64,000 nucleotides of DNA from an uncultured Rothia sp. (GTDB lineage Bacteria > Actinomycetota > Actinomycetes > Actinomycetales > Micrococcaceae), in NCBI RefSeq assembly GCF_916049665.1, contig NZ_CAJZIE010000001.1, positions 1,223 to 65,222 on the forward strand, in the 5' to 3' direction. Of the stretch, positions 14,524 to 47,061 are shown piece by piece. A program made the translations under genes and the position numbers. The notes under the pieces are model-generated. The model was not told the DNA's origin. It saw only the letters and a list, made by a program, of their open reading frames with translations, and searched no databases. Every line of letters starts with the position of its first letter. Position 1 is the first letter of the stretch.

Positions 14524-14580
14524 AGCTCCCTGCCCCCTATACGTTTTCGCAGTGTCGTATAGGGGTGGGGAGCTTTTTCT
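14524..14580 (+). terminator. rho-independent terminator after SBP paralog 3
   Basis: Hairpin 'agctccctgccccctatacg...cgtataggggtggggagct' followed by TTTTT. Confidence 0.65.
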
Positions 14581-14840
14581 TGTGGAGGGTTCAGTGCGCT
14601 TTAGTTGCCCCGACGCTGTGCTTGTAACTTGTAACGACTCTCAAAGTACCGGGTGTGACGCGCTCGCGCGCCAATGCTACATAATATTTCATTTTTTAGT
14701 TTTCGCACGCGGCTTCCGCATGATGATGCGGTTTCAGGCGCTGAACCCGTGATTTTTAGACGGTGTATAGTTCTTCCACGGATTGGACTGTGGTCTGCGT
14801 CGCTTCTTTTGGGGGTATACTGTGTTTCAACCACAAACAA

Positions 14841-14856
14841 TGTGGGGGCTCTCACA
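14841..14856. promoter_or_regulatory. CRP/GlxR-like palindrome TGTGG-N6-TCACA upstream of SBP paralog 4
   Basis: 'TGTGGgggctcTCACA' matches the Crp family consensus TGTGA-N6-TCACA. It lies ~100 bp upstream of the start codon. Confidence 0.4.
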
Positions 14857-14954
14857 AAGGTGATGGGCGGGAGCTTCGGCGCTCCCGAAAAATCAGCGCA
14901 CAACACGGTGCGCTTATCGAATAGCACCCGAGCCCTCCGGCATGAGGAGAATAC

Positions 14955-16664
14955 ATGACTCATCTACGTATTAATCGCCGTACCCTGCTGACCGGCACCG
15001 TTGCCCTGGGTACCGTCGGCCTGCTCGCTGCATGCGGCGGCGGCTCTGACAAGAAGATCAGCGGTAAGGCTGCATCAAGCACCGAGGAAATCGTCAAGAA
15101 CCTCGAAATCAACAAGCAGGACCGCTCCTCCCTCAAGCAGGGTGGCGAGTTCCGCGGTAGCGTCTCCGCAGTCGGCCCGAACTTCAACATTCTGACTCAG
15201 AGCGGCTACACCACCGAGAACCTCACCGCATTCGGTGGCGCCTGCAACATCCCCTCCGCTATCGGCTTCACCTCCCTAAGCCCTGCTGGCGAATACAGCC
15301 TCAACGACGACTATGTCAGCGACTACAAGGCAGAGACCGTTGGCGGCGTGCAGACCATCACCTTCAAGCTCAACTCTAAGGCTGTCTTCAATGACGGCAC
15401 CCCCGTTGACGTTGAGGCAATCCGCGCCGCGTGGACCGTCTACCGCAACCCTGATGACGGCTACAACGTTATCGCCGCTCCCTTCTGGCAGCAGGTAGCA
15501 TCCATCGACCCCGTGGATGGCGACAAGACCCGCGTCAAGATCGTCATGTCCAAGCCCCTGTACCCCGCTGAGACCCTCGGCCTGCTCGGTCTGCACCCCG
15601 CACTGACCGACAAGGAGCTCTTCAATAACGGCTTCGTGAACAAACCCATGGATCAGTACTGGTCCGGCCCCTTCAAGATTGGCGAGTGGAACTCTTCGGC
15701 TAAGACCCTCACCCTCGTGCCCAACGACAAGTGGTGGGGCGAGAAGCCTCTGCTGGATCGCATCATCTGGCGCGAAATGGGCGACGAAGCAGAGCGCGCA
15801 GCGTTCAAGAACGGCGAGCTGGACAGCATCGGCTTTGCTGGCCTGGCAACCTACAACGCCGTCAAGGGTCAGCCCGGTGTTCAGATTCGCTCCGGCCAGA
15901 GCGTTGGCGTGATCAACCTGCAGTTCAACCCGACCCGCGTGACCGACACCGCCCTGCGCCGTGCAGTCTTCGCCGCGGTTGACCGCTCCCAGCTGGCTAA
16001 GGTCAAGTTCGGCCAGATCAACTGGGAAGAGCCGCTGACCGGCTCCATGATCGCTATGCCCTTCCAGAAGGGCTACCAGAACAACATGCCGTCCAACCCC
16101 GGCGCCGAGGCTGCGGCAAAGATCCTGGAAGCAGCAGGCTACTCCAAGAATGGCGACTACTACGCCAAGGACGGCAAGACTGCAGGCTTCTCCATCACCT
16201 ACTTCGGTTCGGATGCAACCTCCCTGGCTCAGTTCCAGAACCTCGAGCAGCAGCTCAAGGCAGCAGGTATTAAGCTCGAGCAGGACAACCAGCCGCAGTC
16301 CCAGTTCAACTCCGTGATGGGCTCTAAGCAGTACGACTGCGCCTTCTCCGGCTGGGGTATTGGTGCTGACCCCGCAGACAGTGTTCAGTACTTCTACACC
16401 AGCGAAATCAACGAAGGTGTGGGCGATCCCGAGCTGGATAAGTTCATCGCGTCTATTTACGAGAAGGAATCCCACGAGGAGCAGTTGAAGATGGCTGCTG
16501 AGGCTGAGAAGCAGCACATGGAGAAGGTCGCTATTTACTTCCCCTACGCTAACGGCCCCAGCTACGCAGCTGTGAAGGAGAAGCTGGCTAACTATGGTCC
16601 TTCCCTCTTCGCAACCAGCTACACCGACCCCAAGCGCTGGGTCAATGTGGGTTGGCAGAACTAA
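14955..16664 (+). CDS. ABC transporter substrate-binding lipoprotein, family 5, paralog 4
   Basis: RBS 'gaggag'. Signal 'NRRTLLTGTVALGTVGLLAACGGG' is near-identical to those of paralogs 5 and 6. Confidence 0.85.
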   Translation: MTHLRINRRTLLTGTVALGTVGLLAACGGGSDKKISGKAASSTEEIVKNLEINKQDRSSLKQGGEFRGSVSAVGPNFNILTQSGYTTENLTAFGGACNIPSAIGFTSLSPAGEYSLNDDYVSDYKAETVGGVQTITFKLNSKAVFNDGTPVDVEAIRAAWTVYRNPDDGYNVIAAPFWQQVASIDPVDGDKTRVKIVMSKPLYPAETLGLLGLHPALTDKELFNNGFVNKPMDQYWSGPFKIGEWNSSAKTLTLVPNDKWWGEKPLLDRIIWREMGDEAERAAFKNGELDSIGFAGLATYNAVKGQPGVQIRSGQSVGVINLQFNPTRVTDTALRRAVFAAVDRSQLAKVKFGQINWEEPLTGSMIAMPFQKGYQNNMPSNPGAEAAAKILEAAGYSKNGDYYAKDGKTAGFSITYFGSDATSLAQFQNLEQQLKAAGIKLEQDNQPQSQFNSVMGSKQYDCAFSGWGIGADPADSVQYFYTSEINEGVGDPELDKFIASIYEKESHEEQLKMAAEAEKQHMEKVAIYFPYANGPSYAAVKEKLANYGPSLFATSYTDPKRWVNVGWQN

Positions 16665-16914
16665 AGCCACAGGTTAATTTTCTGGATTCCTATTCGGTAG
16701 TTTCTGAATTTTCGGAGGCGCCGGTTCAGGTCTCCAGAAGGGTAAAGTCCCGCGGTATTCCGCCTCAGTGGCGGGGTACTGCGGGGCTTTTCTGTGTTTT
16801 TGATGGGGGGTTTGTGGTGGGGTGGTTTCGGGGATTGGCTGAAATATTTTCCCTAAAACGGTGAACTAGGTCATAGTGCGTGGGAAATGTGTGTATACTA
16901 ATCTCAATGCAAAA

Positions 16915-16930
16915 TGTGCGTGCTGTCACA
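16915..16930. promoter_or_regulatory. CRP/GlxR-like palindrome TGTGC-N6-TCACA upstream of SBP paralog 5
   Basis: 'TGTGCgtgctgTCACA' lies ~65 bp upstream of the start, followed by the same 'TCACAAAGGTG' string seen at paralog 4. Confidence 0.4.
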
Positions 16931-16995
16931 AAGGTGTGCGGGTTGTGTTCCCCCGCGTACAGCAAAGCAGCATCCCACCTAACTGAGGAAAACTA

Positions 16996-18702
16996 ATGAC
17001 CACTTTCACCCTCAACCGTCGTACCCTGCTCACCGGCACCGTTGCCCTGGGTACCGTCGGCCTGCTCGCAGCCTGCGGCGGCAACTCCTCCAAGAACGAA
17101 ACCAGCGCTCTCTCCGCCGGCGACGACCTCTCCAAGGCAGTCTCCTACAACGAGAAGGACCGCTCCGCCCTCAAGGACGGCGGCGAGCTGCGACTGAGCG
17201 CAGACGGCATTGGCCCGAACTTCAACATCCTCAACACCAACGGCTACACCGCCGGTAACCTGAATATTCAGGCGGCTATCAACTCTGCCTTCACCGGCGG
17301 CTTCTACGCTGACTTCCGCGGCGAGTCGCACATGAACAAGGACTACGTCACCGAATACAAGGCGCAGACCGTTGACGGCGTGCAGACCGTGACCTTCAAG
17401 ATCAACCCCAAGGCAGCCTTCAACGACGGTACCCCCATCGACGTGAACGCCGTCAAGAGCTACCAGACCATCTACACCGCCGCGGCATCCGGTTCGGACT
17501 ACCAGATCACCCCCTCGCCCATCTGGGAACAGGTCGCAAGCGTCGAGGCTGTGGACGGCGATACCCGCCACGTGAAGGTCACCATGTCCAAGCCCTGGTA
17601 CCCCATCGAAGGCAGCTTCACCTCGTTCCTGCACCCGGCATTCGCCGACCCCAAGTTCTTCAACGACGGCCTGAACGACAAGCCCCTCGACCAGTACTGG
17701 GCAGGTCCCTTCAAGGTCGGCGAGTGGAACTCCTCCTCCAAGGTGCTCACCGTCGTCCGCAACGAGAAGTGGTGGGGCACCAAGCCCGCTCTTGAGCGCA
17801 TCACCTGGCGTGAAATGAGCTCCCAGGCAGAGCAGGCAGCTTACAAGAACGGCGAAATCGACTACGTGGATGCCAGCACCCTCAGCTCCTACAACGAGCT
17901 CTCCGGCGTGGCAAACACCGACATTCGCAAGGGTAGCGCTCTCAGCGTGGGCAACTACGAAATCAACCCCGAAAAGGTGCCCCTGCCCGTCCGCCGCGCA
18001 TTCGTTGCAGCCCTCAACCGTGAGCAGCTGCAGAAGCTGCGCTACGAGAAGCTCGGCTGGAAGGAAACCCTGCCCGGCTCCATGTGCATGCTGCCCATGC
18101 AGGAAGGCTACCAGGACAACTACCCGACCAAGCTCGGCAAGGACGTCGCTACCAAGATCCTTGAGGACGCAGGCTACACCAAGTCCGGTGACTACTACAC
18201 CAAGGACGGCGCTAAGGTCTCCTACCCGGTCATCACCTTCGGTAGCGACCCGGTTGTCAGCTCCACCGCGCAGTTCCTCGTCCAGCAGATGAAGGAAATC
18301 GGCGTTGAACTGACCATCGAGAACCACGGTGCCTCTGAAATGTCGAGCATCATCTCCTCGAAGAACTTCGCGATTAAGACCGGTGGCTACGGCATCACCA
18401 CCTCCCCGGTGGATGCGGCGAACTACTTCTACATCTCCGAGACCAACAACGGTCACGGTAAGGATCTGGACTCGCTGGCAGCAACCATGATGTCCACCGA
18501 GGACCCGAAGGAACAGCTCAAGATCATGAACGAGCTGGAGAAGCGCCACCTGGACGAGGTCGCCATCTACGTGCCCACCCACAACGGCCCGAACTTCAAG
18601 GCGTGCCGTAAGGGCCTGGCGAACTACGGCCCCATGCTCTTCGGCCTGCCCTACTACAACCCGAACGTATGGATCAACGTCGGTTGGGAGAAGCAAAACT
18701 AA
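16996..18702 (+). CDS. ABC transporter substrate-binding lipoprotein, family 5, paralog 5
   Basis: RBS 'gaggaaa'. Signal 'NRRTLLTGTVALGTVGLLAACGGN'. Confidence 0.85.
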   Translation: MTTFTLNRRTLLTGTVALGTVGLLAACGGNSSKNETSALSAGDDLSKAVSYNEKDRSALKDGGELRLSADGIGPNFNILNTNGYTAGNLNIQAAINSAFTGGFYADFRGESHMNKDYVTEYKAQTVDGVQTVTFKINPKAAFNDGTPIDVNAVKSYQTIYTAAASGSDYQITPSPIWEQVASVEAVDGDTRHVKVTMSKPWYPIEGSFTSFLHPAFADPKFFNDGLNDKPLDQYWAGPFKVGEWNSSSKVLTVVRNEKWWGTKPALERITWREMSSQAEQAAYKNGEIDYVDASTLSSYNELSGVANTDIRKGSALSVGNYEINPEKVPLPVRRAFVAALNREQLQKLRYEKLGWKETLPGSMCMLPMQEGYQDNYPTKLGKDVATKILEDAGYTKSGDYYTKDGAKVSYPVITFGSDPVVSSTAQFLVQQMKEIGVELTIENHGASEMSSIISSKNFAIKTGGYGITTSPVDAANYFYISETNNGHGKDLDSLAATMMSTEDPKEQLKIMNELEKRHLDEVAIYVPTHNGPNFKACRKGLANYGPMLFGLPYYNPNVWINVGWEKQN

Positions 18703-18951
18703 GCGTTGAGCACCGCTCACACACTCCATAAGGGGTAAAAGCGCTACAGCGGCGTGTTACAAAAGGATTAAAACCTTCTGTAGCACGCCGCTTTCCCGTT
18801 CCTAAGAGAGTCGCACGGATATACTTAAAACAAATGTGGGCATTCTGCCCGCAACCCCGGCAGAGACTGTCCTCCCGCCGGGTTGGAGTGTGGGTTACGC
18901 ACCGTTCGCGTACCGCCTCCACAACACTGCGAATACTCTAGGAGAAATTCC

Positions 18952-20655
18952 ATGAAGAGCATGTCTGTCTCTCGCCGTACCCTCCTGACCGGCACCGTTG
19001 CCCTCGGCACCGTTGGTCTACTGGCTGCCTGCGGCAGCTCGAAGGAAAAGGTTGGCGGTAGCGCCGCTAACAACGCTGAAGATATTCTGAAGAACCTTCA
19101 GGTCAACAAGCAGGACCGTTCCTCCCTCAAGCAGGGTGGCACCCTGACCCTCGCGGCTACCGCCCTGGGCCCCAACTTCAACCTGCAGACCCAGAGCGGC
19201 TACACCTCCAGCAACCTGGACGCTCTGGCACCCTGCAACATTCCCGCCGTGATGGGCTTCTACACCATGAGCCCCGAAGGCGAAGGTACCCTCAACCCCG
19301 AGTTCTGCACCGAGCACAAGACCGAGACCGTCGATGGCGTGCAGACCGCGACCTTCAAGATCAACCCCAAGGCTGCCTTCAACGACGGCACCCCCATGGA
19401 CGTGAACGCTGTTCGCGCCGTGTGGAAGGTCTACCGCGCAACCACCGACAACCCCTACCACATCACCGACAACACCATGTGGCAGCAGGTTGAGAGCATC
19501 GAGGCTGTGGACGGCGACAACTTCCACGTCAAGGTCACCATGAAGGCTCCGTACTACCCCTCCGAGGGTCTGTGCGCCTTCGCAATCCACCCCGCCCTGG
19601 AAGACGTCAACCTCTTCAACGAAGGCTTCGTTGACAAGCCCCTCGACCAGTACTGGGCAGGTCCCTTCAAGGTTGGCGAGTGGAACTCCTCCCAGAAGGT
19701 GCTCACCCTGGTCAAGAACGACAAGTGGTGGGGCGAGAAGCCGGTGCTGGACCGCATCATCTGGCGTCAGATGGACTCCGAAGCAATCCGTGCAAGCTTC
19801 AAGAACGGCGAACTGGACGCCTTCACCTTCGTTGGCGCAACCAGCTACAACGCTGTGAAGGGCCAGGCAGGCACCGAGATTCGCCAGAGCCAGAACACCA
19901 ACGTCAACATCATTCAGCTGAACCCCAAGCGCATCGAGGACCTGGCACTGCGCCGCGCAATCCTCGCTTCTGTGGACCGCGAGCAGATTGCTAAGGCATA
20001 CTTCTCGCAGCTCGGCTGGACCGAGCCGCTGCCCGGCTCCATCATCGCAATGCCGTTCCAGAAGGGCTACCAGAACAACTACGCTGGTGACACCGGTGCA
20101 CAGGCAGCTGGCAAGATTCTGGAGGCAGCAGGCTACTCCAAGTCCGGCGACTACTACGCTAAGGACGGCAAGGTTGCTGGCTTCGCCCTGACCTCCTTCG
20201 GTTCCGAGGCTGTCTACCAGGCGGTCTACCAGATTCTGGAGCAGCAGCTGAAGTCCGCAGGTATCCGCCTGAGCGCTGACAACCAGCCGCAGTCGAACTC
20301 CAACTCCGTGCTCGGCCAGAAGAGCTACGAAGCAATCTTCACCGGTTGGGGCGTTCTGCCCGACCTGGCTTCCTCGGCACCCTACTTCTTCACCACCGAG
20401 GTGTTCGGAGTCGGTGACCCCGAAGTTGATAAGCTCATCGAGAAGCTGCAGAACACCGAGAAGGAAGACGAGCGCATCAAGATCGCTAACGAGGCGGAGA
20501 AGCTCTACTACGAGAAGGTCGCAGTGTACCTGCCCTACGCAAACGGCCCGATGTACGCCGCTGTCAAGGCTAAGGTTGCGAACTACGGTCCGTCCCTGTT
20601 CAAGCAGAGCTACACCAGCGCTGACTACTGGGTCAACGTTGGCTGGCAGGAGTAG
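18952..20655 (+). CDS. ABC transporter substrate-binding lipoprotein, family 5, paralog 6 (track ORF starts at 18883; the RBS-supported start is 18952)
   Basis: RBS 'aggaga' precedes the ATG at 18952. Signal 'MKSMSVSRRTLLTGTVALGTVGLLAACGSS'. Confidence 0.85.
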   Translation: MKSMSVSRRTLLTGTVALGTVGLLAACGSSKEKVGGSAANNAEDILKNLQVNKQDRSSLKQGGTLTLAATALGPNFNLQTQSGYTSSNLDALAPCNIPAVMGFYTMSPEGEGTLNPEFCTEHKTETVDGVQTATFKINPKAAFNDGTPMDVNAVRAVWKVYRATTDNPYHITDNTMWQQVESIEAVDGDNFHVKVTMKAPYYPSEGLCAFAIHPALEDVNLFNEGFVDKPLDQYWAGPFKVGEWNSSQKVLTLVKNDKWWGEKPVLDRIIWRQMDSEAIRASFKNGELDAFTFVGATSYNAVKGQAGTEIRQSQNTNVNIIQLNPKRIEDLALRRAILASVDREQIAKAYFSQLGWTEPLPGSIIAMPFQKGYQNNYAGDTGAQAAGKILEAAGYSKSGDYYAKDGKVAGFALTSFGSEAVYQAVYQILEQQLKSAGIRLSADNQPQSNSNSVLGQKSYEAIFTGWGVLPDLASSAPYFFTTEVFGVGDPEVDKLIEKLQNTEKEDERIKIANEAEKLYYEKVAVYLPYANGPMYAAVKAKVANYGPSLFKQSYTSADYWVNVGWQE

Positions 20656-24672: not shown

Positions 24673-27294
24673 CTACTTAGTCGGGAAGAAATTCAGCGGA
24701 GCAACCTCCAGCTCAGGGTAATTACGCTTCTGCCAACGGCGGTTACGATGCGCATTCACCTCAATCAGAGCCGCACCCAGGGCGCCGGCACCAACCGCGG
24801 TCCACAGCAGATGCGGAAGCACCGTAACGAACTGGTGGTACTCCACCAGAACCGGCACGAACAGCGCCGCGAAGAACACCGCAAGCAATGCGCCAAACAG
24901 CAGAACACGAGCACGGTTGAACGGGCGAGCCACCGCAGCCAAGTTCCACAGACCCATCATCACCAGGGTGATGAACGAAGCCGTCTGAATCTGACGGATA
25001 TCCTCAACACCCATGCCGCGAGCCGTGAACGTCACCGCCAACAGCATCGCAACCACAATAATCGAGTTCGGAACCGTGTAATTCAGCACGCGGCGCAAGA
25101 AGCCCGGCACGTAACGGCGCGAATTCGGTAGCAGAGTCAACGCGAAGGACGACGCGCCCACAATCAAGAAGTCAGCGGTCGAGTACTGACGCGGCAAGAA
25201 CGGGAAGGTCAAACCGAAGAGGCTGAACAGAACACCCAGCAGAATCGCGAAACCGGTCTTCGTCAAGAACAGGTTCGCCACCATCTCAATGTTCGTAATG
25301 ACCTGACGGCCCTGCTCCAGGGCAGCCGGCAGGGACGAGAACTTACCGTCCAGCAGAACCAGACGAGAAACAGCCTTCGTCGCAGGGGCCGCGTTACCCA
25401 TCGCAATACCCAAGCTTGCATGCTTGAGCGCCAGAGCGTCATTAATACCGTCACCGGTCATTGCCACCACATGGCCGCGCTCCTTCAGAGCAATCACCAT
25501 GTTCTTCTTCTGCTCGGGCGACACACGACCGAAAATGTTGTGAGTAGCCGCAGCCTCGGCAAGCTCCGGGCCGTCCTCGGGCAGAGTCGACGCGTCAACC
25601 GCACCAGCGGAGGTGTCCATACCCGCGGTCTTCGCAGCCGCCGCCACAGTGAACGGGTTATCACCCGAGAAGACCTTCAGAGTCACGCCCTGACGGTGGA
25701 AATACTCCACAATCTCAGGCGCATCCGCACGCACGTTCTCACGGAAAATCACGAACAGAACCGGGGTAGCATCCGACGGGATCTTCTGGATCGGCTCATC
25801 CTTCTCATTGCGGACCACCGCAGAAGCATGCGCCAAAACCATCGTGCGCAGACCCAACGCCGCCAGTTCGGCCGCACGCTCACGCTCAGCGGTGCCCTTG
25901 GCGAGAAGCGCCTCCGGAGCACCCAGAAGCCAAGCACCCGAATCCTTAAACTCAATCGCGCTAAAACGCAGAGCCGAGGAGAACGGCACAATACCGGTCA
26001 CCGACGCTGACGAAGCATCCGGGAAGCCACCGGTCAGAGCCGCAGCGGTCGGGTTCGCGTTCTCATCGTGACCAAACCACGCCAGCGCCTCATTCCAGCC
26101 GGCAGGTAGAGAAGCACGCCAAGAAGTGTGCTCGGCAGAGTCGGCATCCGGGCCCTCAGCCTCAGCAGCGGTGTCCAGCGGGCGCACCGAATCAAAAATC
26201 ACGCCGCCCTCAGTCAGGGTGCCGGTCTTATCGAAGCAGACCACGTCCACACGAGCCAGAACCTCAACCGCAGGCTGTTCCTGCACCAGGATGTTGTGCT
26301 TACGACCCAGCGTCACAGCCGCCGCAGCAAACGCCAGGGTAGTCATCAGCGCCAGGCCCTGCGGAATCATCGAAGCAACCGAGGACACCACAGCAATAGA
26401 AACCTGCTCCCACAGGTTGTTCTGCTGCACGGTCTCCAGGCCGCCAGCCGCCTGAATCTGACCCCACAACACCACAGGAATAATGACCGCAAGACCCACC
26501 GTAATCCAGCGGACTACACGGTTCAGCGCATCACGCAGCTCAGACTGAATACGCGAGAACTGGCGCGCCTCGTCAGAAATCTTGCTTGCACGAGAATTCG
26601 CACCCACGTGCGAGAGCAGGACGCGGCCGGTACCACCCAGCACACTCGACGCCGACAGCACCATATCGCCGGGGCGCTTAGCAATCGGGTCGTTCTCACC
26701 GGTCAGCAGGGACTCATCCAGCTCCAAAGAATCGGAGGTGAGCACAACAGCATCCGCGGGAACCTGATCGCCGCGCTTGAGGATGACAACGTCACCCTCA
26801 ACCAGCTGCTCCATCGGAACCTCGATGGTCTTACCGTCACGCACAGCGGTCGCGGGGGATCGGTCCAGCAGAGAGATGCGGTCCAGCTCAAGCTTCGCCT
26901 TGTACTCCTGCACAAAACCAATCACCACGTTAGCGATAACAGCCGCCAGGAAGAGCAAATCAGCCCAACGCTGGTACATGATCACTACAGCGCCACAGGC
27001 ACCCAACACAAAGTTAAAGACCGTGAACAGATGCGCACGCATAATGCTCCACAGCGTGCGGGAAGACTTATTGTTCTGGGTATTGACCTTACCCTCAGCC
27101 GTCAGGCGTGCAACATCATCGCTACTCAAGCCGTGCTGGGCAATATCGAAAGATCCGCTATGCGGTGTTTCAGAATATTCGGGAATGTAGCCGGCAACGG
27201 CAGCCGTTGCCGTTTTCTGCTGAGGATCCATGCAGGGGTCTCTTTCTCGAATGGGTGGAATGCAGAACTGAATAGAGTTCAGCATTGCGGACAC
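24673..27294 (-). CDS. cation-transporting P-type ATPase (P2-type; Ca2+/Mg2+-like)
   Basis: Phosphorylation motif 'CFDKTGTLTEGG', hinge 'MTGDGINDALALKHASLGIAMG', and 10 predicted TMS. Confidence 0.85.
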   Translation of the reverse strand: MSAMLNSIQFCIPPIRERDPCMDPQQKTATAAVAGYIPEYSETPHSGSFDIAQHGLSSDDVARLTAEGKVNTQNNKSSRTLWSIMRAHLFTVFNFVLGACGAVVIMYQRWADLLFLAAVIANVVIGFVQEYKAKLELDRISLLDRSPATAVRDGKTIEVPMEQLVEGDVVILKRGDQVPADAVVLTSDSLELDESLLTGENDPIAKRPGDMVLSASSVLGGTGRVLLSHVGANSRASKISDEARQFSRIQSELRDALNRVVRWITVGLAVIIPVVLWGQIQAAGGLETVQQNNLWEQVSIAVVSSVASMIPQGLALMTTLAFAAAAVTLGRKHNILVQEQPAVEVLARVDVVCFDKTGTLTEGGVIFDSVRPLDTAAEAEGPDADSAEHTSWRASLPAGWNEALAWFGHDENANPTAAALTGGFPDASSASVTGIVPFSSALRFSAIEFKDSGAWLLGAPEALLAKGTAERERAAELAALGLRTMVLAHASAVVRNEKDEPIQKIPSDATPVLFVIFRENVRADAPEIVEYFHRQGVTLKVFSGDNPFTVAAAAKTAGMDTSAGAVDASTLPEDGPELAEAAATHNIFGRVSPEQKKNMVIALKERGHVVAMTGDGINDALALKHASLGIAMGNAAPATKAVSRLVLLDGKFSSLPAALEQGRQVITNIEMVANLFLTKTGFAILLGVLFSLFGLTFPFLPRQYSTADFLIVGASSFALTLLPNSRRYVPGFLRRVLNYTVPNSIIVVAMLLAVTFTARGMGVEDIRQIQTASFITLVMMGLWNLAAVARPFNRARVLLFGALLAVFFAALFVPVLVEYHQFVTVLPHLLWTAVGAGALGAALIEVNAHRNRRWQKRNYPELEVAPLNFFPTK

Positions 27295-27472: not shown

Positions 27473-28243
27473 TCAGCGCTCCGGCAGAATCAACAAACGA
27501 TTCGTCACCGGATGCCTCAACACCTCAATCGGATGCTGATACACCTCAGACAACAACTCCGCCGAACACACCTGCTCAGGGGTGCCCGAAGCAACCACCT
27601 CGCCACCACGCAACAACACCATACGGTCAGAATACGCAGCCGCTACATCCAGGTCATGAAGCACGGTCAACACCGCGGCACCCTCGGCAGCCAACTCACG
27701 GCTCACCCGCAACGTCTGCTCCTGATGTGTAATATCCAACGCCGCAGTCGGCTCATCCAAAAGAATCAGCGGAGTCTGCTGAGCAAACACACGTGCCAAA
27801 TGCGCACGGCCACTTTCGCCACCGGACAGGGTCGTAATATCGCGATCCGACAAATGAGTCACCGACGTGCGCTCCATCATCGAAGCGACCACGGCATCAT
27901 CCTCTTCAGCGCGCTCCGTACCCTTCCACGGGGTGCGGCCCATCTGAACCACTTCATGCACCGTGTACGAAAACGCCACATTCAACTTCTGCAGTAGCAT
28001 CGCACGCTGACGAGCCATCTGACGGGCAGGAATCGAACCCAGGGGGGCGCCATCCAGCAGAATCTCACCGCTACTGCGCGCAATATCACCAGCAATCACA
28101 CCCAACAGAGTGGACTTACCGGCACCATTGGGACCAATTAGCGACACAACCTCGCCCGCAGAAACCGACAGAGACACATCATTCAGAATCTGGCGCCCAC
28201 CAGCGTTAAAACACACACCGGACAGGCTTAACAACTCACTCAC
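27473..28243 (-). CDS. hmuV: heme/iron-siderophore ABC transporter ATP-binding protein
   Basis: Walker A 'GPNGAGKST'. FecE/HmuV-like size of 256 aa. Overlaps the permease upstream. Confidence 0.8.
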   Translation of the reverse strand: MSELLSLSGVCFNAGGRQILNDVSLSVSAGEVVSLIGPNGAGKSTLLGVIAGDIARSSGEILLDGAPLGSIPARQMARQRAMLLQKLNVAFSYTVHEVVQMGRTPWKGTERAEEDDAVVASMMERTSVTHLSDRDITTLSGGESGRAHLARVFAQQTPLILLDEPTAALDITHQEQTLRVSRELAAEGAAVLTVLHDLDVAAAYSDRMVLLRGGEVVASGTPEQVCSAELLSEVYQHPIEVLRHPVTNRLLILPER

Positions 28244-29319
28244 GAAGCACCTCCGCCCTGACCCAGAGAACGACGCAACAAGACAAAGAACGTCGGGCCG
28301 CCCACCAGAGCCGTAAAAATACCAATCGGCAAATCAGCAAAAGGCACCAGCGTACGCGCACCCAAATCAGATAGCGCAATCAACAGAGCGCCACCCAACG
28401 CCGAAGCCGGCAACAGTACACGATTCGACGGACCCAAAATCATGCGCAACAGGTGAGGAATAATCAGACCAATAAACGCAATAATGCCCGCATACGCCAC
28501 CGCGGCACCCGTCAACAAAGCCGTCGCCGCAATAGACACCGCACGTAGGCGCTCCACATTCACACCCGAATGCTGCGCCGCGCGCTCACCCAACGCCAGA
28601 ACATCCAGCGAAGAAGCCATCACGAAACACGCCACCAAGCCAATCAGAATGACCGGCCACACGCTCGCAACAGCCTTCCACGTGGCGCCGTTCAGCGAAC
28701 CCATCTGCCAGAACACAATCTGATCGCGGCTCGTCGTATCAGCAATGAACATGAGGAACGCAATAATCGCATTCGCCACCGCGGTCACCGCAATACCCGT
28801 CAAAATCATCGACAGGACCTTAGCACGCCCCGAAGAACGCGACAGGAAATACACCAGCGCGGTAGCCGCCAGCGCACCCACAAACGCGAACGCGGGAGTC
28901 GTGAAAATGCCGAAGAACTGCAGGTTCAACACAATCGACAAACACGCGCCAACCGCCGCACCCGAGGAAACACCAATCACGCCCGGCTCAGCCAGCGGGT
29001 TACCGAACACCGACTGCATCACCGCACCGGAAGTGCCCAACGCGGCACCCACCAGCACACCCAACAGCACACGCGGGAAACGGATATTCCACAGCGTATT
29101 ATCGGCAAGCTGCATCGCCGGGTTCTCCGGCACAAAACCCAGACGGCGGCCCACAGAAGCAATCACCTGATCAGTCGGGATATTGTACTGACCCAAACCC
29201 GCAGACAGCACCATCACGGCGCACAGCGCCACCGCCAAAAACGTAAACGTCAGACCGGCACGACGCCGACGCGACGCACGATAATCCCTCGCGCCCGCCG
29301 CACTCTTCACGGCAGCCAC
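28240..29319 (-). CDS. hmuU: heme/iron ABC transporter permease, FecCD family
   Basis: 359 aa polytopic protein with FecCD-type architecture. Translationally coupled to hmuT and hmuV. Confidence 0.8.
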   Translation of the reverse strand: MAAVKSAAGARDYRASRRRRAGLTFTFLAVALCAVMVLSAGLGQYNIPTDQVIASVGRRLGFVPENPAMQLADNTLWNIRFPRVLLGVLVGAALGTSGAVMQSVFGNPLAEPGVIGVSSGAAVGACLSIVLNLQFFGIFTTPAFAFVGALAATALVYFLSRSSGRAKVLSMILTGIAVTAVANAIIAFLMFIADTTSRDQIVFWQMGSLNGATWKAVASVWPVILIGLVACFVMASSLDVLALGERAAQHSGVNVERLRAVSIAATALLTGAAVAYAGIIAFIGLIIPHLLRMILGPSNRVLLPASALGGALLIALSDLGARTLVPFADLPIGIFTALVGGPTFFVLLRRSLGQGGGAS

Positions 29320-30482
29320 TACTGGGCTCCCGCAGGAGTCGAGTACGCAGCCTTAGCCAGCGACAGCAACACCGCCGGAGTATTCGGGCCGTAGGACAGA
29401 ATCTGACCGTCACCCATATCGATAATGCGCTTATTCTTACCGGCAGTCGTCTCACCCACACCCGGGCGAGCCAAGAAACCATCCAAACCACCGGTGGACT
29501 TAATGCCGCCGCTCATGGTCAGAATGACGTCCGGGTTCAGCTTCACCAGCGCCTCACTGGTCGCCGGAATAATATTCGTCGCGTTCTGCTCAGACGCCAC
29601 ATCCTTGCCGCCAATAGCCTGAATCAAATCATCAGCGCCAGAGCCCTTACCGAGCACGAAGAACACGCCAGCGGTACCGCGCACGTACAGGAACGCGAAC
29701 GACACCTGCTGCTCGCCCTTCGGTGCAACCTCCTTGAGTACCTGCAGGGCGTAATCCAGGTCCTTCTGCACGCGGGCGGCAACCTGCTCGCCCGCCTCCG
29801 GAACACCCAGCGCCTGCGCCACAGCCTTGAGCTGCGGAATGATCTTATCCATGCGGCGCTCATGGTCGAAGACCACAACGGTCACACCCGCCGCGCGCAG
29901 CTGATCCACAATCTCAATCGGGCCGTTGCTCTTATCCCACAGCACCAGGTCAGGGGAGGTCGCCAGAATCGCCTCAGCATTCAGGTCGTGACCGTTCTGA
30001 GTCACCAGCGGAAGATGAGCCAGCGACTGCTCCGTCGAGGAGGTGACGCGACCCACCAGGCGGCCGCCCAGACCCAATGCAATCATCTGCTGAGCCAGAG
30101 TGCCGTACAGGTCCAGCGCCAGCACACGGTCAGCGGACTTAACGGTCACCTCAGTGCCGTTGAAATCCTTGAACGTCACGGGGAAAGCCGGAGTGGGGGT
30201 ATCGACCATCGGCTGAATTTCGGGGGTATCCGCCGCGCTATTGGGGCCGCGCAGAGCCTTCTGATCAGGGGCAATAGAAGAACGCAGCTGATCTGCCAGG
30301 TTCTCCAAAACGGTGCGGGTGCTCTGCTCATCCACCACAGCCTGCGACGTGTTCGAAGAAGCAGACGGGTTCTGAGTACCCACGCCGCAAGAGCTCAACA
30401 GGAACGCGGAGGTGATGGAGAACGCCGCATACTTCATTGCATCGCGGCGGTTCAGGGCAGAAGAAGAAAGAGAAGAAAACAT
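29319..30482 (-). CDS. hmuT: heme ABC transporter substrate-binding lipoprotein (class III periplasmic binding protein)
   Basis: Lipobox 'AFLLSSCG'. Periplasmic binding protein fold typical of HmuT/FecB. Sits in an operon with the FecCD permease and ATPase. Confidence 0.75.
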   Translation of the reverse strand: MFSSLSSSALNRRDAMKYAAFSITSAFLLSSCGVGTQNPSASSNTSQAVVDEQSTRTVLENLADQLRSSIAPDQKALRGPNSAADTPEIQPMVDTPTPAFPVTFKDFNGTEVTVKSADRVLALDLYGTLAQQMIALGLGGRLVGRVTSSTEQSLAHLPLVTQNGHDLNAEAILATSPDLVLWDKSNGPIEIVDQLRAAGVTVVVFDHERRMDKIIPQLKAVAQALGVPEAGEQVAARVQKDLDYALQVLKEVAPKGEQQVSFAFLYVRGTAGVFFVLGKGSGADDLIQAIGGKDVASEQNATNIIPATSEALVKLNPDVILTMSGGIKSTGGLDGFLARPGVGETTAGKNKRIIDMGDGQILSYGPNTPAVLLSLAKAAYSTPAGAQ

Positions 30483-30666
30483 CGTCGTCTCACAGAGAAA
30501 AAGGGAGCTAGAAAAACTGGGGTAGGTGCCGGGGCAAAATCTGGCACCTGAAGCGGGGGTGCAGTGAAAATCTGCACCCCCGCACGGACCGTGTCAGCTC
30601 ACCGGTGAACCTCATGGTTGAGTCTCACGGGCGAGCCGACAGTGTGGGCATCCTCGTGAGGTGCCG

Positions 30667-33021
30667 CTATGCCTTCTTGCGGCGGCGAGTGTACACGACG
30701 GTACCCGCACCGGCCGCGACAGCGATGAAGCCAGCAACCAGGGTGCCCTCAACACCGGACGCACCGGTGGAAGCCAGGGGCTTGCCGGTGACCGGGTCGC
30801 AACCCTCACCCTCGTAGACGGTCTCGGTCACGGTCTTGGTGGTGGTCTTAGCGCCGTTGATTGCTGCGGAGAAGCTCAGCGGAGCCATGTCCTTACCAGC
30901 CTCGTAGAAGCCAGCGAATGCCTTCGCGCCCTCAGCGGTCAGAGCGGTTGCCGCACCGTTGACGCTCACAGCCTCGGCGGAGCTCTGCAGACCGGACAGA
31001 TCCACCTTCAGCAGTGCCACCTCACCGTAGTTAGTTGCCTTGCCGGAGGAGTCATTGCTGTTCATGGTCGCGTAGAGAGTACCGGAATTGCCGTTAATCT
31101 CGAGGCGCGGGTTCGCAATGGTGGTGTCCAGAATGCCGTGGTGACCGGTGAAACGAACCGAACCGCTGAAGGAGATGGAACCCTTACCGCCCTTGAAGGT
31201 GCCGGTGCCGTTAGACCAGTTGAACGCATCCGAAGAGTAGGAGGTGCCGTTCAGCTCCCAGCTACCGTTCGCGATGCCGCCGCGCACGTAGTTGCGGAAG
31301 GAATCACGCACGCCCCAGCCGAGGTTAGCGCTCTTAATGGTGCCGTCGGATGCGCCCTGCTCCTGTACCTCGCGGGTGCGGGTGACGGGTACGCAGACAG
31401 GCTGTGCCGGGTTGTTGCTGACAGAGCCATTCGAGGAGGAACCGCCGTTAGAGACGCTGCCGGAGGTGCCTGCCGAACCACCAGAACCGGAGCCGCTCGC
31501 GCCGGAGTTACCGGAGGAGTTCGAGGAGCTGTTATCGGAGGAGCCGTTCTCAGAACCCTTGTTGTCGGAGGACTTGTCCTCAGAGACGCGCGGAACCTCA
31601 ACGGTGTTCTCCGCGGTCTGCTCGCTGAGCTTTACGGAGAAGCTCAGCGGTGCCATGGCGTTGTCGGAGCCGCGGTACTGGCCCGCGAAGAGAACCTCGG
31701 AGCCTTCATTGGTGAGGGCAACCGCCGCGTTCTGCGCGGAGAAAACCCCGTCCTTCACGCTCGCGCCGGAGAGGTCTACCTCGGCGATAGCCAAGCCGGT
31801 CTTGGAGATGGACTTACCGTCGCGGGTCAGCGCGTCAACATCGGCGACCAAGGTGCCCTTACCGTTGACGACGACCAGGCGCATGTTCTTGATGGTGCTC
31901 TTGAGCTGACCGTTGTGGCCGGTGAACTCTGCGGTGCCCGCAAAGTTGATCTGACCGGTCTTGGTCTCGGGGTTGTACACGCCGGATGCCTGAGTGTACT
32001 TCAGGCCGCCTGCCGCGGTCTTCTCCAGACCGTCAACGTTCACGGAGCCGTGGGCGAAGCTGGTCAGGTACTTCAGGAAGGACTCGCGGATATCCCAGCT
32101 GAGGGTGCCGGACTCGACGACGTTGCCGGTGACCTTCTCTTCACGCTTGGGCTCGGTGGTTGCGGCGGGGGAGGAGGGCACCGCGGAGGTGGGGGCTGCG
32201 CTCGGCGCTGCAGAAGTGGGCTCGGCGGGCTTGGGTGCCTCGCTGGTCGGTGCGGAGGAAGGCTCGCTGCTGGGCTCTGCGGTCGGCGCTGCAGTCGGCT
32301 CGGCGCTGGGCTCAGTGGAAGGTGCGGGCGCGGGTGCTTCCTTGGTCACGATGGTTGCGGAGAAGCCGAGCGCATCCAGCTCCTGACCTGCCTTGTAGAA
32401 GCCGGCGAAGGCGCCGGTTGCCTCTTCGGAGAGCTTGACGCGGGTGCCGTTTTCTTCGTCAACGCTGGGCAGGGTGATGGTGTTACCCTCAACCTTCAGG
32501 CCGGAGGCGTTGAAGGTACCGATGGTCATGTTCTTGGTTTCGACCAGGTCGTTCGGGGTGGTGTTGCCGTTGTAGGGGCGCGACTGAACGTTGGCGCGCA
32601 CGGTGCCCACGCCGTCCTTAATGGTGACGGAGAGGTCGGAGATGATGACTTCCAGCAGGCCGTGGTGTGCGGTGTAGTGGATCGAGGAACCGGTGAAGGT
32701 GACGGAGTATTCGCCGTTGGCTACGGTGCCTTCGGCGGAGGTGAAGTGGTAGGAGCCGTCTTCGTTGGTGGTGACGCCGGTCAGTTCCTGAGAGCCCTGG
32801 GAGAAGGGGCCGTTGATGTAGGAGCGGAAGGACTTCTTCAGACCCCAGTTGACGGTGACGTCCTGCAGGCTCTGCTCTGAGGCTGCGGTTACCTCACTGG
32901 CGCTGATGTGGGAGTTGGTTTCAGCTGCGAAGGCTGCGGGTACGCCGGCGACGCCGCTGAGGCCGATGGTTGCTGAAGCCAAGAACGCCCAAGTGCGCTT
33001 GGTGAGAGAGGGGGTAGACAT
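30667..33021 (-). CDS. htaA: cell-wall-anchored heme-binding protein, HtaA-like, with three CR domains and an LAxTG (LASTG) sortase signal
   Basis: N-terminal signal peptide. Three repeats with the HtaA CR-domain signature (e.g. 'SFRNYV...VRFTGHHGILDTTIANPRLEINGNSGTLYA', with conserved Y and H). Ser/Gly/Asn-rich and Pro/Ala/Glu-rich linkers. C-terminal 'LASTG', a hydrophobic segment and 'RRRKKA'. Adjacent to hmuTUV. Confidence 0.8.
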   Translation of the reverse strand: MSTPSLTKRTWAFLASATIGLSGVAGVPAAFAAETNSHISASEVTAASEQSLQDVTVNWGLKKSFRSYINGPFSQGSQELTGVTTNEDGSYHFTSAEGTVANGEYSVTFTGSSIHYTAHHGLLEVIISDLSVTIKDGVGTVRANVQSRPYNGNTTPNDLVETKNMTIGTFNASGLKVEGNTITLPSVDEENGTRVKLSEEATGAFAGFYKAGQELDALGFSATIVTKEAPAPAPSTEPSAEPTAAPTAEPSSEPSSAPTSEAPKPAEPTSAAPSAAPTSAVPSSPAATTEPKREEKVTGNVVESGTLSWDIRESFLKYLTSFAHGSVNVDGLEKTAAGGLKYTQASGVYNPETKTGQINFAGTAEFTGHNGQLKSTIKNMRLVVVNGKGTLVADVDALTRDGKSISKTGLAIAEVDLSGASVKDGVFSAQNAAVALTNEGSEVLFAGQYRGSDNAMAPLSFSVKLSEQTAENTVEVPRVSEDKSSDNKGSENGSSDNSSSNSSGNSGASGSGSGGSAGTSGSVSNGGSSSNGSVSNNPAQPVCVPVTRTREVQEQGASDGTIKSANLGWGVRDSFRNYVRGGIANGSWELNGTSYSSDAFNWSNGTGTFKGGKGSISFSGSVRFTGHHGILDTTIANPRLEINGNSGTLYATMNSNDSSGKATNYGEVALLKVDLSGLQSSAEAVSVNGAATALTAEGAKAFAGFYEAGKDMAPLSFSAAINGAKTTTKTVTETVYEGEGCDPVTGKPLASTGASGVEGTLVAGFIAVAAGAGTVVYTRRRKKA

Positions 33022-33117
33022 TCGGTGTCTCCTTGAATTAGTGATTGTGGTGTTCGTATCAAGTCTAGACCTATTAGCCTATGTTTGTGTAACTTAATGC
33101 CTAGGGTGACTTGTGCA

Positions 33118-33134
33118 TAAGGTTTACCTTAGCA
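33118..33134. promoter_or_regulatory. DtxR/IdeR-like palindrome (TAAGGTTTACCTTA) in the htaA-hmuO divergent region
   Basis: Perfect 6-2-6 palindrome resembling the iron-box half-sites TTAGG...CCTAA. Lies ~100 bp upstream of the htaA start. Confidence 0.4.
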
Positions 33135-33167
33135 AATTTTTTGTGGGGGCTATTGCCAAAACTGGTT

Positions 33168-33211
33168 TTTGGTGACAATATGTCATTAACAGTTTGGTGA
33201 CACAGTGTCAT
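33168..33211. promoter_or_regulatory. two tandem palindromic operators (TTTGGTGACA-N-TGTCAT) upstream of hmuO
   Basis: 'tttggtgacaatatgtcat' and 'tttggtgacacagtgtcat' are spaced 25 bp apart, at -88 to -45 relative to the hmuO ATG. Confidence 0.5.
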
Positions 33212-33255
33212 CAAAACCTTTATTGTTCACCCACAAGTCGCTATAGGAGCTCACC

Positions 33256-33918
33256 ATGACTATTACCGCCCCCGAAACCACCCAGGAACGCTTCTCCGCA
33301 CGCCTGAAGGAAAGCACCAAGCACGTCCACGACAACGCCGAACACTCCACCTTCATGGAAGACCTCATGGGCGGCGCCCTCAACACCGAGGCATACCTGC
33401 GCCTCATCAACCAGTACGTGCACATCTACGAAGCACTCGAAGCAGTCTCCGCACACTACCGCGCAGAACCCAACCCCATCACCGAACCCTTCACCCAGCC
33501 CGGCCTCGACCGCGCAGAATACATCCGTGCAGACATCCGCGCACTCGGCCAGGAAGGCGACATCGATGCGCCCCTGCCCGCAACCGCAGAGTACGTAGAG
33601 CGCATCCGCGCCACCATCAACTCCCCCGAACGCTACCTCGCACACCACTACCTGCGCTACCTCGGCGACCTCTCCGGCGGCCAGGCCGTCGCAGCGCTCG
33701 TCAACCGCCACTACGGCATCCCCGCCGAAGCACTGAGCATGTACCGCTTCACCGAACTGCCCAAGCCCAAGGTCTTCAAGGACGGCTACCGCGAACTGCT
33801 CGACAACGCACCCCTGACCGACGAACAGCGCGAGGCCCTCATCGAAGAGTGCATCGAAGGCTTCCGCATCAACGCCTCCCTGTTCGCGCAGCTGGGCCGC
33901 CAGGTCGCTGAGGCATAA
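33256..33918 (+). CDS. hmuO: heme oxygenase
   Basis: 'FSARLKESTKHVHDNAEHSTFMEDLM' matches the heme oxygenase proximal-helix region (catalytic His). 220 aa. RBS 'aggag'. Divergent from the htaA-hmuTUV cluster. Confidence 0.85.
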   Translation: MTITAPETTQERFSARLKESTKHVHDNAEHSTFMEDLMGGALNTEAYLRLINQYVHIYEALEAVSAHYRAEPNPITEPFTQPGLDRAEYIRADIRALGQEGDIDAPLPATAEYVERIRATINSPERYLAHHYLRYLGDLSGGQAVAALVNRHYGIPAEALSMYRFTELPKPKVFKDGYRELLDNAPLTDEQREALIEECIEGFRINASLFAQLGRQVAEA

Positions 33919-45824: not shown

Positions 45825-46148
45825 ATGATCTTCAAAAAAGTAGGCGACAGTCGCCCCTACCCCCAGCACGGCATGACCCACGCCGACTGGGGAGGAATCC
45901 CGCCGCAGCAGGTACGCCTCGACACCCTCATCACCACCCAAAAAACCCTCAACCTCGAGACCCTACTCGCCGAAGACTCCACCTTCTACGGCGACCTCTT
46001 CCCGCACGTCGTCAAATGGGGTGGCGAACTCTACCTCGAAGACGGCGTGCACCGCGCGCTCCGAAACGCCCTGCACCGCCGCGCCGTCATGTACGCGCGC
46101 GTACTCGACCTGGACTCCATCTCACCGGCACTGCTGCCCGGTGCGTAA
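45825..46148 (+). CDS. small ParB/sulfiredoxin-like domain protein (107 aa), hypothetical
   Basis: High GC3. The region 'IPPQQVRLDTLITTQ...ELYLEDGVHRALRNALHRRAVMYARVLD' resembles the ParB/Srx nuclease-fold core (DGxHR...A). Confidence 0.4.
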   Translation: MIFKKVGDSRPYPQHGMTHADWGGIPPQQVRLDTLITTQKTLNLETLLAEDSTFYGDLFPHVVKWGGELYLEDGVHRALRNALHRRAVMYARVLDLDSISPALLPGA

Positions 46149-46256
46149 CCCCCCCCGAATACAGAAAAAGCCGCGGACCGATGCAAAGAAGCATCAGGTC
46201 CGCGGCATTTTTAGTGACGTATAACTGCTACGTATTTGTTGCTTAGGGCGCCACGC

Positions 46257-46952
46257 TTAGGATGCGACCTTCAGGCCCGCCTCCTGCACCGGGGACTGCT
46301 CCGGCAGAGACTCCTCGGAGTCCAGGCGAACAGGGTTGCCCTCGGCGTCAAAACGCGCTCCGAGGCCCATCTGAATAAAACGGATGGTATTCAGAATCTG
46401 GCGCTCGCGGGTCTCCTCGTCCGGCGCGTCCTCGGCGCGACCGGCGCTTGAGGAGAGGGAGCCGTGCACGAGCATCGCCAGTTCGCGAATGTCGTTCTTC
46501 GGAATGTAGTTCTCGGCAATGGCGGCAGAAAGAATATGCGCGAGCACCATCTGCAGCTCGTGAACGTGCTTGCCGAGCTTCGCGTAGGACTCGGGGGAGA
46601 GCATGGAGCGCATCGCAGGGCCCGGAGGCAGGTGGCGGCGCGCCAGGTCGTTGATTTGCAAGCGAATGTAGACCGCGAGCTGGTCAATCGGGTTTTCGAT
46701 GCCCTCCAGGCCGACGCGCAGCTCGTTGAGGAAGCGTTCGGTCTCGTCCAGGGCGTAGGCGACCAGCAGTTCGCCCATGTCGGCGAAGTAGTTGTAGACC
46801 GCGGTGCGGCCGATTCCGGCGTTCTTGGCGACGTCGGTCATGGTCAGGCCGGAGAGGCCGCGGTTGTAGAGGATCTCGCCGAAGGAGTTGAGGATGGCGC
46901 GCTTGGTGTTTTCGCGCTGGGCGGCGTTGGTTGCTGCAGAAATACGAGGCAT
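46257..46952 (-). CDS. TetR family transcriptional regulator
   Basis: HTH 'LTMTDVAKNAGIGRTAVYNYFADMGELL'. Confidence 0.8.
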   Translation of the reverse strand: MPRISAATNAAQRENTKRAILNSFGEILYNRGLSGLTMTDVAKNAGIGRTAVYNYFADMGELLVAYALDETERFLNELRVGLEGIENPIDQLAVYIRLQINDLARRHLPPGPAMRSMLSPESYAKLGKHVHELQMVLAHILSAAIAENYIPKNDIRELAMLVHGSLSSSAGRAEDAPDEETRERQILNTIRFIQMGLGARFDAEGNPVRLDSEESLPEQSPVQEAGLKVAS

Positions 46953-47061
46953 AGTGACACTCTACCCCAAATCGTCAGCAAATGACGAATTTATCGAATG
47001 TGTCACCAAGAAATTTGCCCAATCCATGCGAATTTTCATGTTTATGACAGAACAACCGCCC

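Follow-up and report, generated by a model that had tools for sequence, protein, structure and literature searches.

Tandem palindromes at the heme oxygenase promoter of Rothia as putative operators of an HrtR-like, heme-released repressor

Introduction

In a 64-kb stretch of DNA from an uncultured Rothia sp. (the window), the heme oxygenase gene hmuO is divergently oriented from the heme-uptake operon htaA-hmuT-hmuU-hmuV. Two tandem 21-bp palindromes upstream of hmuO, here called O1 and O2, recur at hmuO in related genomes, and this conservation marks them as real protein-binding sites tied to the gene. We consider it probable that they are tandem operators of a dimeric helix-turn-helix repressor at the hmuO promoter, most likely a TetR-family protein that resembles HrtR and is released by heme, and that a box for an IdeR-family protein lies in the same control region. 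The promoter positions, the mode of repression, heme as the ligand and the identity of the repressor are what we infer from sequence.

To our knowledge, Corynebacterium is the only Gram-positive genus in which the control of heme degradation has been described in detail; DtxR acts there together with the HrrSA and ChrSA two-component systems. TetR-type heme sensors are so far known solely as regulators of heme efflux in Firmicutes. If a heme-released repressor indeed acts on O1 and O2, it would provide the first example of a heme oxygenase under an HrtR-style switch and the first such switch from Actinobacteria, and a repressor would here take the place of the activator in the iron and heme control of hmuO. 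Rothia mucilaginosa, which is abundant among the commensals of the mouth and airways and can act as an opportunistic pathogen, competes for iron, and this competition would make an hmuO switch relevant to its ecology. Since the sites are short, precisely defined and conserved, the hypothesis is directly testable. Moreover, the operators could provide a compact heme-responsive promoter for actinobacterial biosensors.

Two Tandem Palindromes Upstream of hmuO

The operators lie in the divergent control region of htaA and hmuO, an assignment that is borne out by the Pfam matches (three HtaA domains and a heme oxygenase domain). The features of the locus are as follows.

33169-33189, no strand: operator O1, TTGGTGACA-ATA-TGTCATTAA, 21-bp palindrome with its core at 33173-33185 and two mismatches to the consensus
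33194-33214, no strand: operator O2, TTGGTGACA-CAG-TGTCATCAA, one mismatch to the consensus, just 3' of the predicted transcription start
33153-33158, plus strand: predicted hmuO -35 element TTGCCA, deduced from conservation
33173-33181, plus strand: predicted hmuO extended -10 element TG-A-CAATAT inside O1, deduced from conservation
33245-33249, plus strand: hmuO ribosome-binding site AGGAG, 6 nt 5' of the ATG at 33256
33256-33918, plus strand: hmuO, heme oxygenase (PF01126, E 1e-46), the regulated gene
234 bp between 33021 and 33256: divergent htaA-hmuO intergenic region
33118-33136, no strand: IdeR/DtxR-like box TAAGGTTTACCTTAGCAAA, core 14-bp palindrome at 33118-33131
33062-33091, minus strand: predicted htaA promoter TACACA/18/TAGACT, -35 at 33086-33091 and -10 at 33062-33067 (reverse complements)
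30667-33021, minus strand: htaA, three HtaA domains (Pfam, E 1e-123)
27473-33021, minus strand: heme-uptake operon htaA-hmuT-hmuU-hmuV (three HtaA, Peripla_BP_2, FecCD and ABC_tran)

The original prediction described two tandem palindromes 25 bp apart with a spacer of one to three nucleotides. Both copies are present, TTTGGTGACAATATGTCAT at 33168-33186 and TTTGGTGACACAGTGTCAT at 33193-33211, with a start-to-start distance of 25 bp; the apparent variation in spacing is due to one extra C:G pair in the second copy, and both copies have the geometry TGACA-N3-TGTCA. Furthermore, both extend to 21-bp palindromes with the consensus TTGGTGACA-N3-TGTCACCAA. The 13-mer with up to one mismatch is not rare in itself, as two matches were found in the window and 1.5 are expected. 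For the extended 21-mer TTGGTGACANNNTGTCACCAA with up to three mismatches, two matches compare with 0.02 expected, and none of 100 shuffles gave two. Both the tandem palindromes and the iron box gain their weight from being conserved in other species.

The Operators Are Conserved and Confined to hmuO

Among 61 hmuO loci that were fetched, 36 Micrococcaceae loci (296 kb) entered the operator count. They represent R. mucilaginosa, R. aeria, one R. dentocariosa-like species, R. nasimurium, R. kristinae, Kocuria massiliensis and 'Curtobacterium sp. S6'. In this set TGACA-N3-TGTCA is matched 59 times with at most one mismatch, always in the 150 bp upstream of hmuO and never elsewhere. No operator matches were found in the fetched hmuO loci of R. 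nasisuis and of more distant actinobacteria (Rhodococcus and others). The view that the tandem palindromes are regulatory sites is thus strengthened by their strong conservation and their link to hmuO across loci.

The half-site is TT[GA]NTGACA. TGACA is invariant in 35-36 of the 36 half-sites, the outer two T's are nearly so, and positions 3 and 4 read [GA]N; perfect 9-3-9 palindromes occur in loci L021, L033, L035 and L164. The arms of O1 are invariant across Rothia species, Kocuria-like genomes and 'Curtobacterium sp. S6', and its ATA spacer is fixed in R. mucilaginosa and R. aeria. In O2, the arms are likewise fixed among R. mucilaginosa strains while the 3-nt spacer reads CAG, TCA, TTG, CGG, TCG, TGG or CTA. 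This difference is explained if the O1 spacer forms part of the predicted -10 element. The distance between O1 and O2 ranges from 25 to 27 bp. Because the arms are invariant, the spacer is free and the variation is symmetric rather than compensatory, the sites are presumably read by a symmetric protein dimer. R. kristinae (L025) keeps the operators, and a same-strand open reading frame (ORF) without Pfam match is called upstream of its hmuO. The operators hence appear to follow hmuO rather than htaA, with the qualification that the loss of the divergent htaA in L025 rests on a doubtful ORF call.

Promoter Geometry Suggests Repression

In every lineage a TTGNNN hexamer is found exactly 17 bp 5' of a CANNNT hexamer, which is preceded by TGn and spans the centre of O1 (R. 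mucilaginosa, R. aeria, L021, L024, L033, L035 and L164). Lineages with a single operator (R. nasimurium, L033) retain the copy that overlaps the predicted -10 element. O2 covers roughly +5 to +25 relative to the predicted hmuO start. With O1 over the predicted extended -10 and O2 just downstream, the arrangement would be that of a repressor rather than an activator. Of the two roles, activator or repressor site, that had been proposed for the palindromes, the geometry supports the latter. A consensus scan offers an alternative hmuO promoter, GTGACA/18/TATTGT (33197-33226), which is not conserved in R. aeria or L021. On the other side of the intergenic region, the predicted htaA promoter keeps its hexamers and 18-bp spacing in R. 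mucilaginosa, R. aeria (L020) and L021, and the spacer sequence differs.

The Operator Core Resembles That of HrtR

The repression of hrtRBA by HrtR acts through a 15-nt palindrome, from which heme releases the protein (PMC10368836, PMC12839281). A full-text literature search for the HrtR operator as a sequence string gave no relevant match. We took the HrtR sequence from PDB 3VOK, searched for homologs and read the DNA upstream of the homolog genes. In two Lactococcus lactis-type loci and in L. garvieae, ATGACACAGTGTCAT is located just 3' of the hrtRBA -10 element, and O2 of the window equals this sequence at 14 of 15 bases. An HrtR homolog of Helcococcus (39% identity) is preceded by tandem operators, TGACA-CCG-TGTCA and TGACA-GGG-TGTCA, which are 31 bp apart and straddle the -10 element; the first is placed between -35 TTGACA and -10 TATAAT. 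These loci suggest that TGACA-N3-TGTCA is the HrtR-family operator, that its spacer is free and that tandem copies over the core promoter occur in some cases, which matches the pattern in Rothia. That half-site and spacing should agree by chance with those of one of about ten known heme regulators is unlikely, at roughly 1 in 500 by a rough estimate.

The parallel to HrtR, a TetR-family sensor of intracellular heme in L. lactis (PDB 3VOK, 3VOX, 3VP5), includes the operator core TGACA-N3-TGTCA, a free spacer (CAG, CCG, GGG), a position over or just after the -10 element (predicted in Rothia), and a heme-handling gene as the target. The tandem layout is common to Rothia hmuO and the Helcococcus homolog. 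The systems differ in several respects. HrtR controls the HrtBA efflux pump, whereas the Rothia target is a heme oxygenase and thus heme degradation. The hrtR gene adjoins its own operator, but the Rothia operators have no adjacent regulator gene. In the outer half-site positions, Rothia has TTGG..CCAA and Lactococcus AAA..TTT-type flanks. Finally, the hosts of the HrtR homologs found are Firmicutes where named, while Rothia is an actinobacterium.

Tandem palindromes are also found with FhtR, a TetR-family heme sensor of Enterococcus faecalis that binds two 14-nt palindromes in the hrtBA promoter and whose repression is relieved by heme (PMC7858072). FhtR and Rothia hmuO share two tandem palindromic operators in the -35/-10 region of a heme-linked promoter, on the Rothia side as predicted. 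The FhtR operator TTATCAATCGATAA is, however, unrelated to the Rothia operators and its target is efflux.

The HrtR-like gene of Helcococcus kunzii (L193 1068-1120), with its two operators around a near-consensus promoter, is followed by a gene for a DUF2871 protein and not by HrtB/HrtA.

Comparison With Corynebacterium

The hmuO gene of the window is 95-98% identical to that of R. mucilaginosa genomes, and purL and purQ are found downstream of it. By its sequence the organism is R. mucilaginosa-like, a member of the Micrococcaceae and not a Corynebacterium. Therefore, Corynebacterium regulators are not to be assumed. In Corynebacterium, hmuO is activated by heme-responsive two-component regulators (PMC7337898), and the HrrA motif of C. 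glutamicum is CMAMCDAAAGKTKGA (PMC12327846). This motif bears no resemblance to O1/O2 or to the iron box. A heme regulator of the Corynebacterium type, as originally expected here, is disfavored by the Rothia host, by the dissimilarity of the palindromes to the HrrA motif and by their core, which is that of the operator upstream of hrtR.

Corynebacterium (DtxR with HrrA/ChrA) and Rothia both have hmuO beside an hta/hmu cluster, and they probably share a scheme that combines an iron box with a heme input of its own. The heme input of Corynebacterium is an activating response regulator, whereas that of Rothia looks like a repressor with another palindrome.

An IdeR-Like Box Between the Divergent Promoters

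The TAAGGT-TT-ACCTTA palindrome noted earlier is present and perfect; it is 14 bp long, lies 97 bp from the htaA start codon and spans 33118-33131, ending at 33131 rather than at 33134. Compared with the IdeR/DtxR consensus TWAGGTWAGSCTWACCTWA, TAAGGTTTACCTTAGCAAA has four mismatches. It is the sole site in the window with four or fewer, and 0.73 such sites are expected by chance in 64 kb. The iron-box match alone is not significant.

The likeness to DtxR/IdeR boxes is upheld by conservation at the orthologous position: in nine of 12 representative loci, no other site of the whole locus is a better IdeR-like match than the box, which is found there at -106 to -177 from hmuO. The conserved core is T[AGT]AGG-N4-CCT[TA]A, in which the arms are kept and the N4 spacer varies. 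Variants include TAAGGCAAGCCTTA (L033), TAAGGCAAGCCTAA (L024), TTAGGGGCACCTAA (L190) and TGAGGTATACCTTA. Many strains of R. mucilaginosa carry the last of these, and the perfect form of the palindrome is hence strain-specific. In the Kocuria-like loci (L033, L035 and L190), the box is positioned between the htaA -35 TTGATT and a TAnnnT -10 with 16/18 spacing, and this placement is, as far as the predicted elements go, the classic geometry of repression. In R. mucilaginosa the box is about 25 bp from the predicted htaA promoter and 16 bp from the predicted hmuO -35. No DtxR-family protein was detected among the window genes scanned.

The Rothia box and the IdeR/DtxR 19-mer have the pentamers TWAGG and CCTWA in common. 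Depending on the species, Rothia-type boxes differ from the 19-mer at three to six positions and the second dimer sub-site is weak. The Rothia iron box is a 14-bp TWAGG-N4-CCTWA core, in contrast to the good 19-mer in the Corynebacterium DtxR control. We take the N4 spacing to be that of pentamers 1 and 3 of the DtxR/IdeR 19-mer, i.e., a one-dimer sub-site. Separate iron and heme inputs on the divergent promoters, as suggested previously, are a reasonable reading of these data.

TetR1 as a Candidate Regulator

The window contains two TetR genes (46257-46952 and 61685-62317). Both were considered as HrtR homologs and ruled out, since neither gave a specific match to HrtR in sequence or PDB searches. 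Neither has O1/O2-like palindromes with N3 spacing upstream, and no FtsX/ABC pair of the HrtBA type is found beside either. The first of them, TetR1, is nevertheless a candidate on account of its promoter and of its location in Kocuria-like genomes:

46257-46952, minus strand: TetR1, uncharacterised TetR-family protein (TetR_N), candidate regulator, conserved in Micrococcaceae
46951-47009, minus strand: TetR1 promoter sites, TTGCTGACG-N13-TGTCACTAT abutting the start codon and a second unit TTGGTGACA-N13-CGTCATTTG

When the window was scanned with a position weight matrix (PWM) of the half-site and spacers of 0-20 nt, the best matches outside hmuO were those at the TetR1 promoter. The left half of the site there is the hmuO half-site (TTGGTGACA, TTGATGACA or TTACTGACA). 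Each of the ten TetR1 loci examined (230 kb in total) has a single copy of the pattern TT[GA]NTGAC[AG]-N13-TGTC[AG]. In eight anchored loci the match begins 29 nt 5' of the start codon, and its right half hence abuts the TetR1 ATG.

TetR1 is 67-96% identical across Rothia and Kocuria. In the Kocuria-like contig L139, a TetR 72% identical to TetR1 directly follows hmuV, as does the TetR1 ortholog of 'Curtobacterium sp. S6', and in L190 TetR1 is found within the heme cluster between hmuV and a second htaA. Elsewhere its surroundings are fixed (Vut_1 or PfkB, TetR1, a VapB-like gene, dnaX, recR, ask) and contain no heme genes. The window TetR1 is in this fixed neighbourhood, 13 kb from hmuO.

A Foldseek search with an AlphaFold model of TetR1 was uninformative and did not place HrtR among its leading matches. 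HrtR leaves the DNA when heme binds through His72 and His149. In a MAFFT alignment, HrtR His149 falls in the column of the invariant TetR1 His163, a placement that is unreliable at 15% identity. One source names a homolog of TetR1 FasR, a TetR regulator of fatty acid synthesis. This identity was rejected: the NCBIfam FasR equivalog scores 19.8 bits against a cut-off of 330, a PDB search gave no match to the FasR structures 6O6N-P, and the FasR site of Mycobacterium tuberculosis, TACCCGTACGTAGAACTCGCCAGTA (PMC7382501), is unrelated. TetR1 matches no other named equivalog either. Another candidate, the TetR-MFS (major facilitator superfamily) pair adjoining hmuO in Kocuria-like loci, has no operator at its promoter, is not orthologous to the window TetRs and was treated as an unrelated efflux pair.

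We regard TetR1 as a possible but doubtful hmuO repressor. Somewhat less likely again is the fuller proposal that heme degradation in Micrococcaceae is under an undescribed heme-responsive TetR1 that would combine HrtR-like specificity for the TGACA half-site with an unrelated ligand-binding domain, and would have two binding modes, as N3 single dimers at hmuO and in N13 spacing over its own leaderless promoter.

A protein of about 105 amino acids with a PF23719 ('VapB-like') domain and a DGVHRA motif is encoded next to TetR1 (region 45825-46952 of the window; also L139 and L184-L191). Its gene is paired with TetR1 by dnaX-recR-ask in most Micrococcaceae loci examined, and no PF23719 gene was called beside TetR1 in L188 and L190. 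The protein is 70% identical between Rothia and a Kocuria-like contig. Its DGVHRA motif resembles what we take to be the DGxHR motif of ParB/Srx.

Proposed Mechanism and Points Against It

Without inducer, a repressor dimer on O1 would cover the extended -10 element, and a second dimer on O2 would cover the first ~25 transcribed bases; together they would block RNA polymerase. Heme that enters via HtaA-HmuTUV would then bind the repressor, which would leave the DNA and allow heme oxygenase to be made. The HrtR logic of Lactococcus would thereby be transferred from heme efflux to heme degradation. The T[AGT]AGG-N4-CCT[TA]A box between the divergent promoters is likely an IdeR/DtxR-family site that provides an iron input, and this input may act mainly on htaA-hmuTUV.

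Several observations count against this model. All promoter positions are consensus-based predictions. The iron box of R. mucilaginosa lies outside both predicted promoters, centred near -61 relative to the hmuO start and near -72 relative to that of htaA, and the 64-kb window has no second copy of it. PF21626, the C-terminal domain of HrtR, is present in neither window TetR, and the best 120 HrtR homologs carry Firmicutes names or none, without an actinobacterial name among them. The similarity of TetR1 to HrtR is generic for TetR proteins (pairwise E 0.003, 21% identity), and the AlphaFold model of TetR1, with a mean confidence score (pLDDT) of 75, retrieves generic TetR folds from the PDB in Foldseek with template modeling (TM) scores of 0.4-0.5. 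The 13-nt spacer at the TetR1 promoter could not be spanned by one TetR dimer in the N3 mode, and the PWM score of this promoter is reached by 25-59% of shuffles and is not significant in the window alone. Moreover, the adjacency of TetR1 to heme genes in Kocuria-like genomes may reflect regional synteny, because TetR1 and its usual neighbours also occur without nearby heme genes.

Alternative Explanations

The closest alternative keeps a repressor on O1/O2 and lets it sense something other than heme, such as biliverdin, a metal or a redox signal; the identity to the HrtR core would then be a coincidence of short, 5-mer half-sites. The common core is defined by only 10 bases, no HrtR-type C-terminal domain was found in the Rothia sequence examined, and TetR1, should it be the regulator, is also kept in genomes and surroundings that have no connection with heme. 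However, in 296 kb the sites are found at the heme oxygenase promoter alone, and half-site, N3 spacing, free spacer, predicted core-promoter position and tandem layout all recur at HrtR-family loci. Induction by the substrate is also the simplest logic for a catabolic enzyme. On these grounds we consider a non-heme ligand unlikely, and release by heme is preferred.

Two further readings abandon the repressor. That O1/O2 are bound by a heme-responsive response regulator of the NarL/LuxR family (HrrA/ChrA-like), which activates hmuO, appears improbable to us. It has a precedent in the activation of Corynebacterium hmuO mentioned above. If the alternative promoter at 33197-33226 were used, O2 would overlap its -35 element and O1 would be centred at about -62, which are typical activator positions. 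We also count in its favor that the half-site TTGGTGACA presumably resembles the half-site TTSGGGACT of DosR, a NarL-family protein. Yet the alternative promoter is not conserved (R. aeria, L021), whereas TTGNNN-17-CANNNT over O1 is found in every lineage, and the single-operator species (L024, L033) keep the copy that overlaps the predicted -10 element. The HrrA motif is unlike the operator, and no response regulator or histidine kinase is present among the window genes tested. The other reading, in which the palindromes act as RNA and an O2 hairpin in the hmuO 5' leader serves as attenuator, terminator or protein-binding stem-loop, is very improbable. It could account for the terminator-like flag (10 pairs) on O2 followed by ACCTTTATTG, and 95% of the alignment cells are pairable when G-U is included. 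There is, however, no covariation: a single double-sided change was seen, 69 of 500 shuffles reach the covariation score of 0.134, and the sequence of the five inner pairs does not vary. The fold of the leader is no more stable than that of shuffled sequences (z = -0.44), and the T-run is missing in L033, L035 and L025. Furthermore, O1 has a similar sequence but overlaps the predicted -10 element and would not be transcribed.

Further Observations

An imperfect inverted repeat, CCTAGGGTGACTTGTG at 33100-33115 and CACAAGTCGCTATAGG at 33232-33247 (81% complementary), flanks the whole hmuO control region. In R. mucilaginosa its left arm is near-invariant (one substitution in one strain) and its right arm varies without compensation; the repeat is probably due to chance.

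A metagenome scan for the perfect 21-mer yielded, among the matches listed, mostly coding sequence inside Bro-N domain genes; the only further hmuO loci were L139 and L164, and no regulator emerged. In the metagenome contigs L064-L183 (e.g., L084 3884-3904), a perfect TTGGTGACA-N3-TGTCACCAA palindrome is situated inside ORFs of about 270-300 amino acids and usually extends to ~31 bp (TTCAGTTGGTGACAAATTGTCACCAACTGAA). The ORF in L084, the sole one scanned, has a Bro-N domain. The palindrome encodes ELVTNCHQL and is conserved at the nucleotide level in contigs of 30% to 63% GC. Because a long palindrome is conserved as DNA inside a coding region, it may have a DNA-level function of its own in these Bro-N-type ORFs. 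In L108 (2740-2850), a metagenome contig of 67% GC, three or four tandem GGTGACACCGTGTCACC-like copies follow an extracytoplasmic function (ECF) sigma factor gene and a 437-aa ORF, and the contig stops before the next gene.

Besides its three HtaA domains, HtaA (30667-33021) has a weak C-terminal match to a Micrococcaceae LAVTG sortase-signal model, which suggests that it might be anchored to the cell wall via a non-LPXTG sortase motif. After hmuV, a P-type ATPase gene (24673-27294) is encoded on the same strand, and Kocuria-like genomes have a VapB-like gene and TetR1 at this place. In R. aeria (L020 4949-5680), an ORF with low GC content at third codon positions and similarity to the HipA C-terminal (toxin kinase) domain is located directly 3' of hmuO and replaces purL.

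A Dyp-type peroxidase gene (57526-58500; a heme enzyme, or EfeB-like) adjoins tgt, the gene of tRNA-guanine transglycosylase, and neither an operator-like nor a box-like site was found near it. Five tandem ORFs of ~570-590 amino acids are present on the plus strand (8605-10305, 10672-12402, 12811-14511, 14955-16664 and 18883-20655). Both ORFs tested encode family-5 solute-binding proteins (SBP_bac_5), suggesting that the region 8605-20655 might be a paralogous array.

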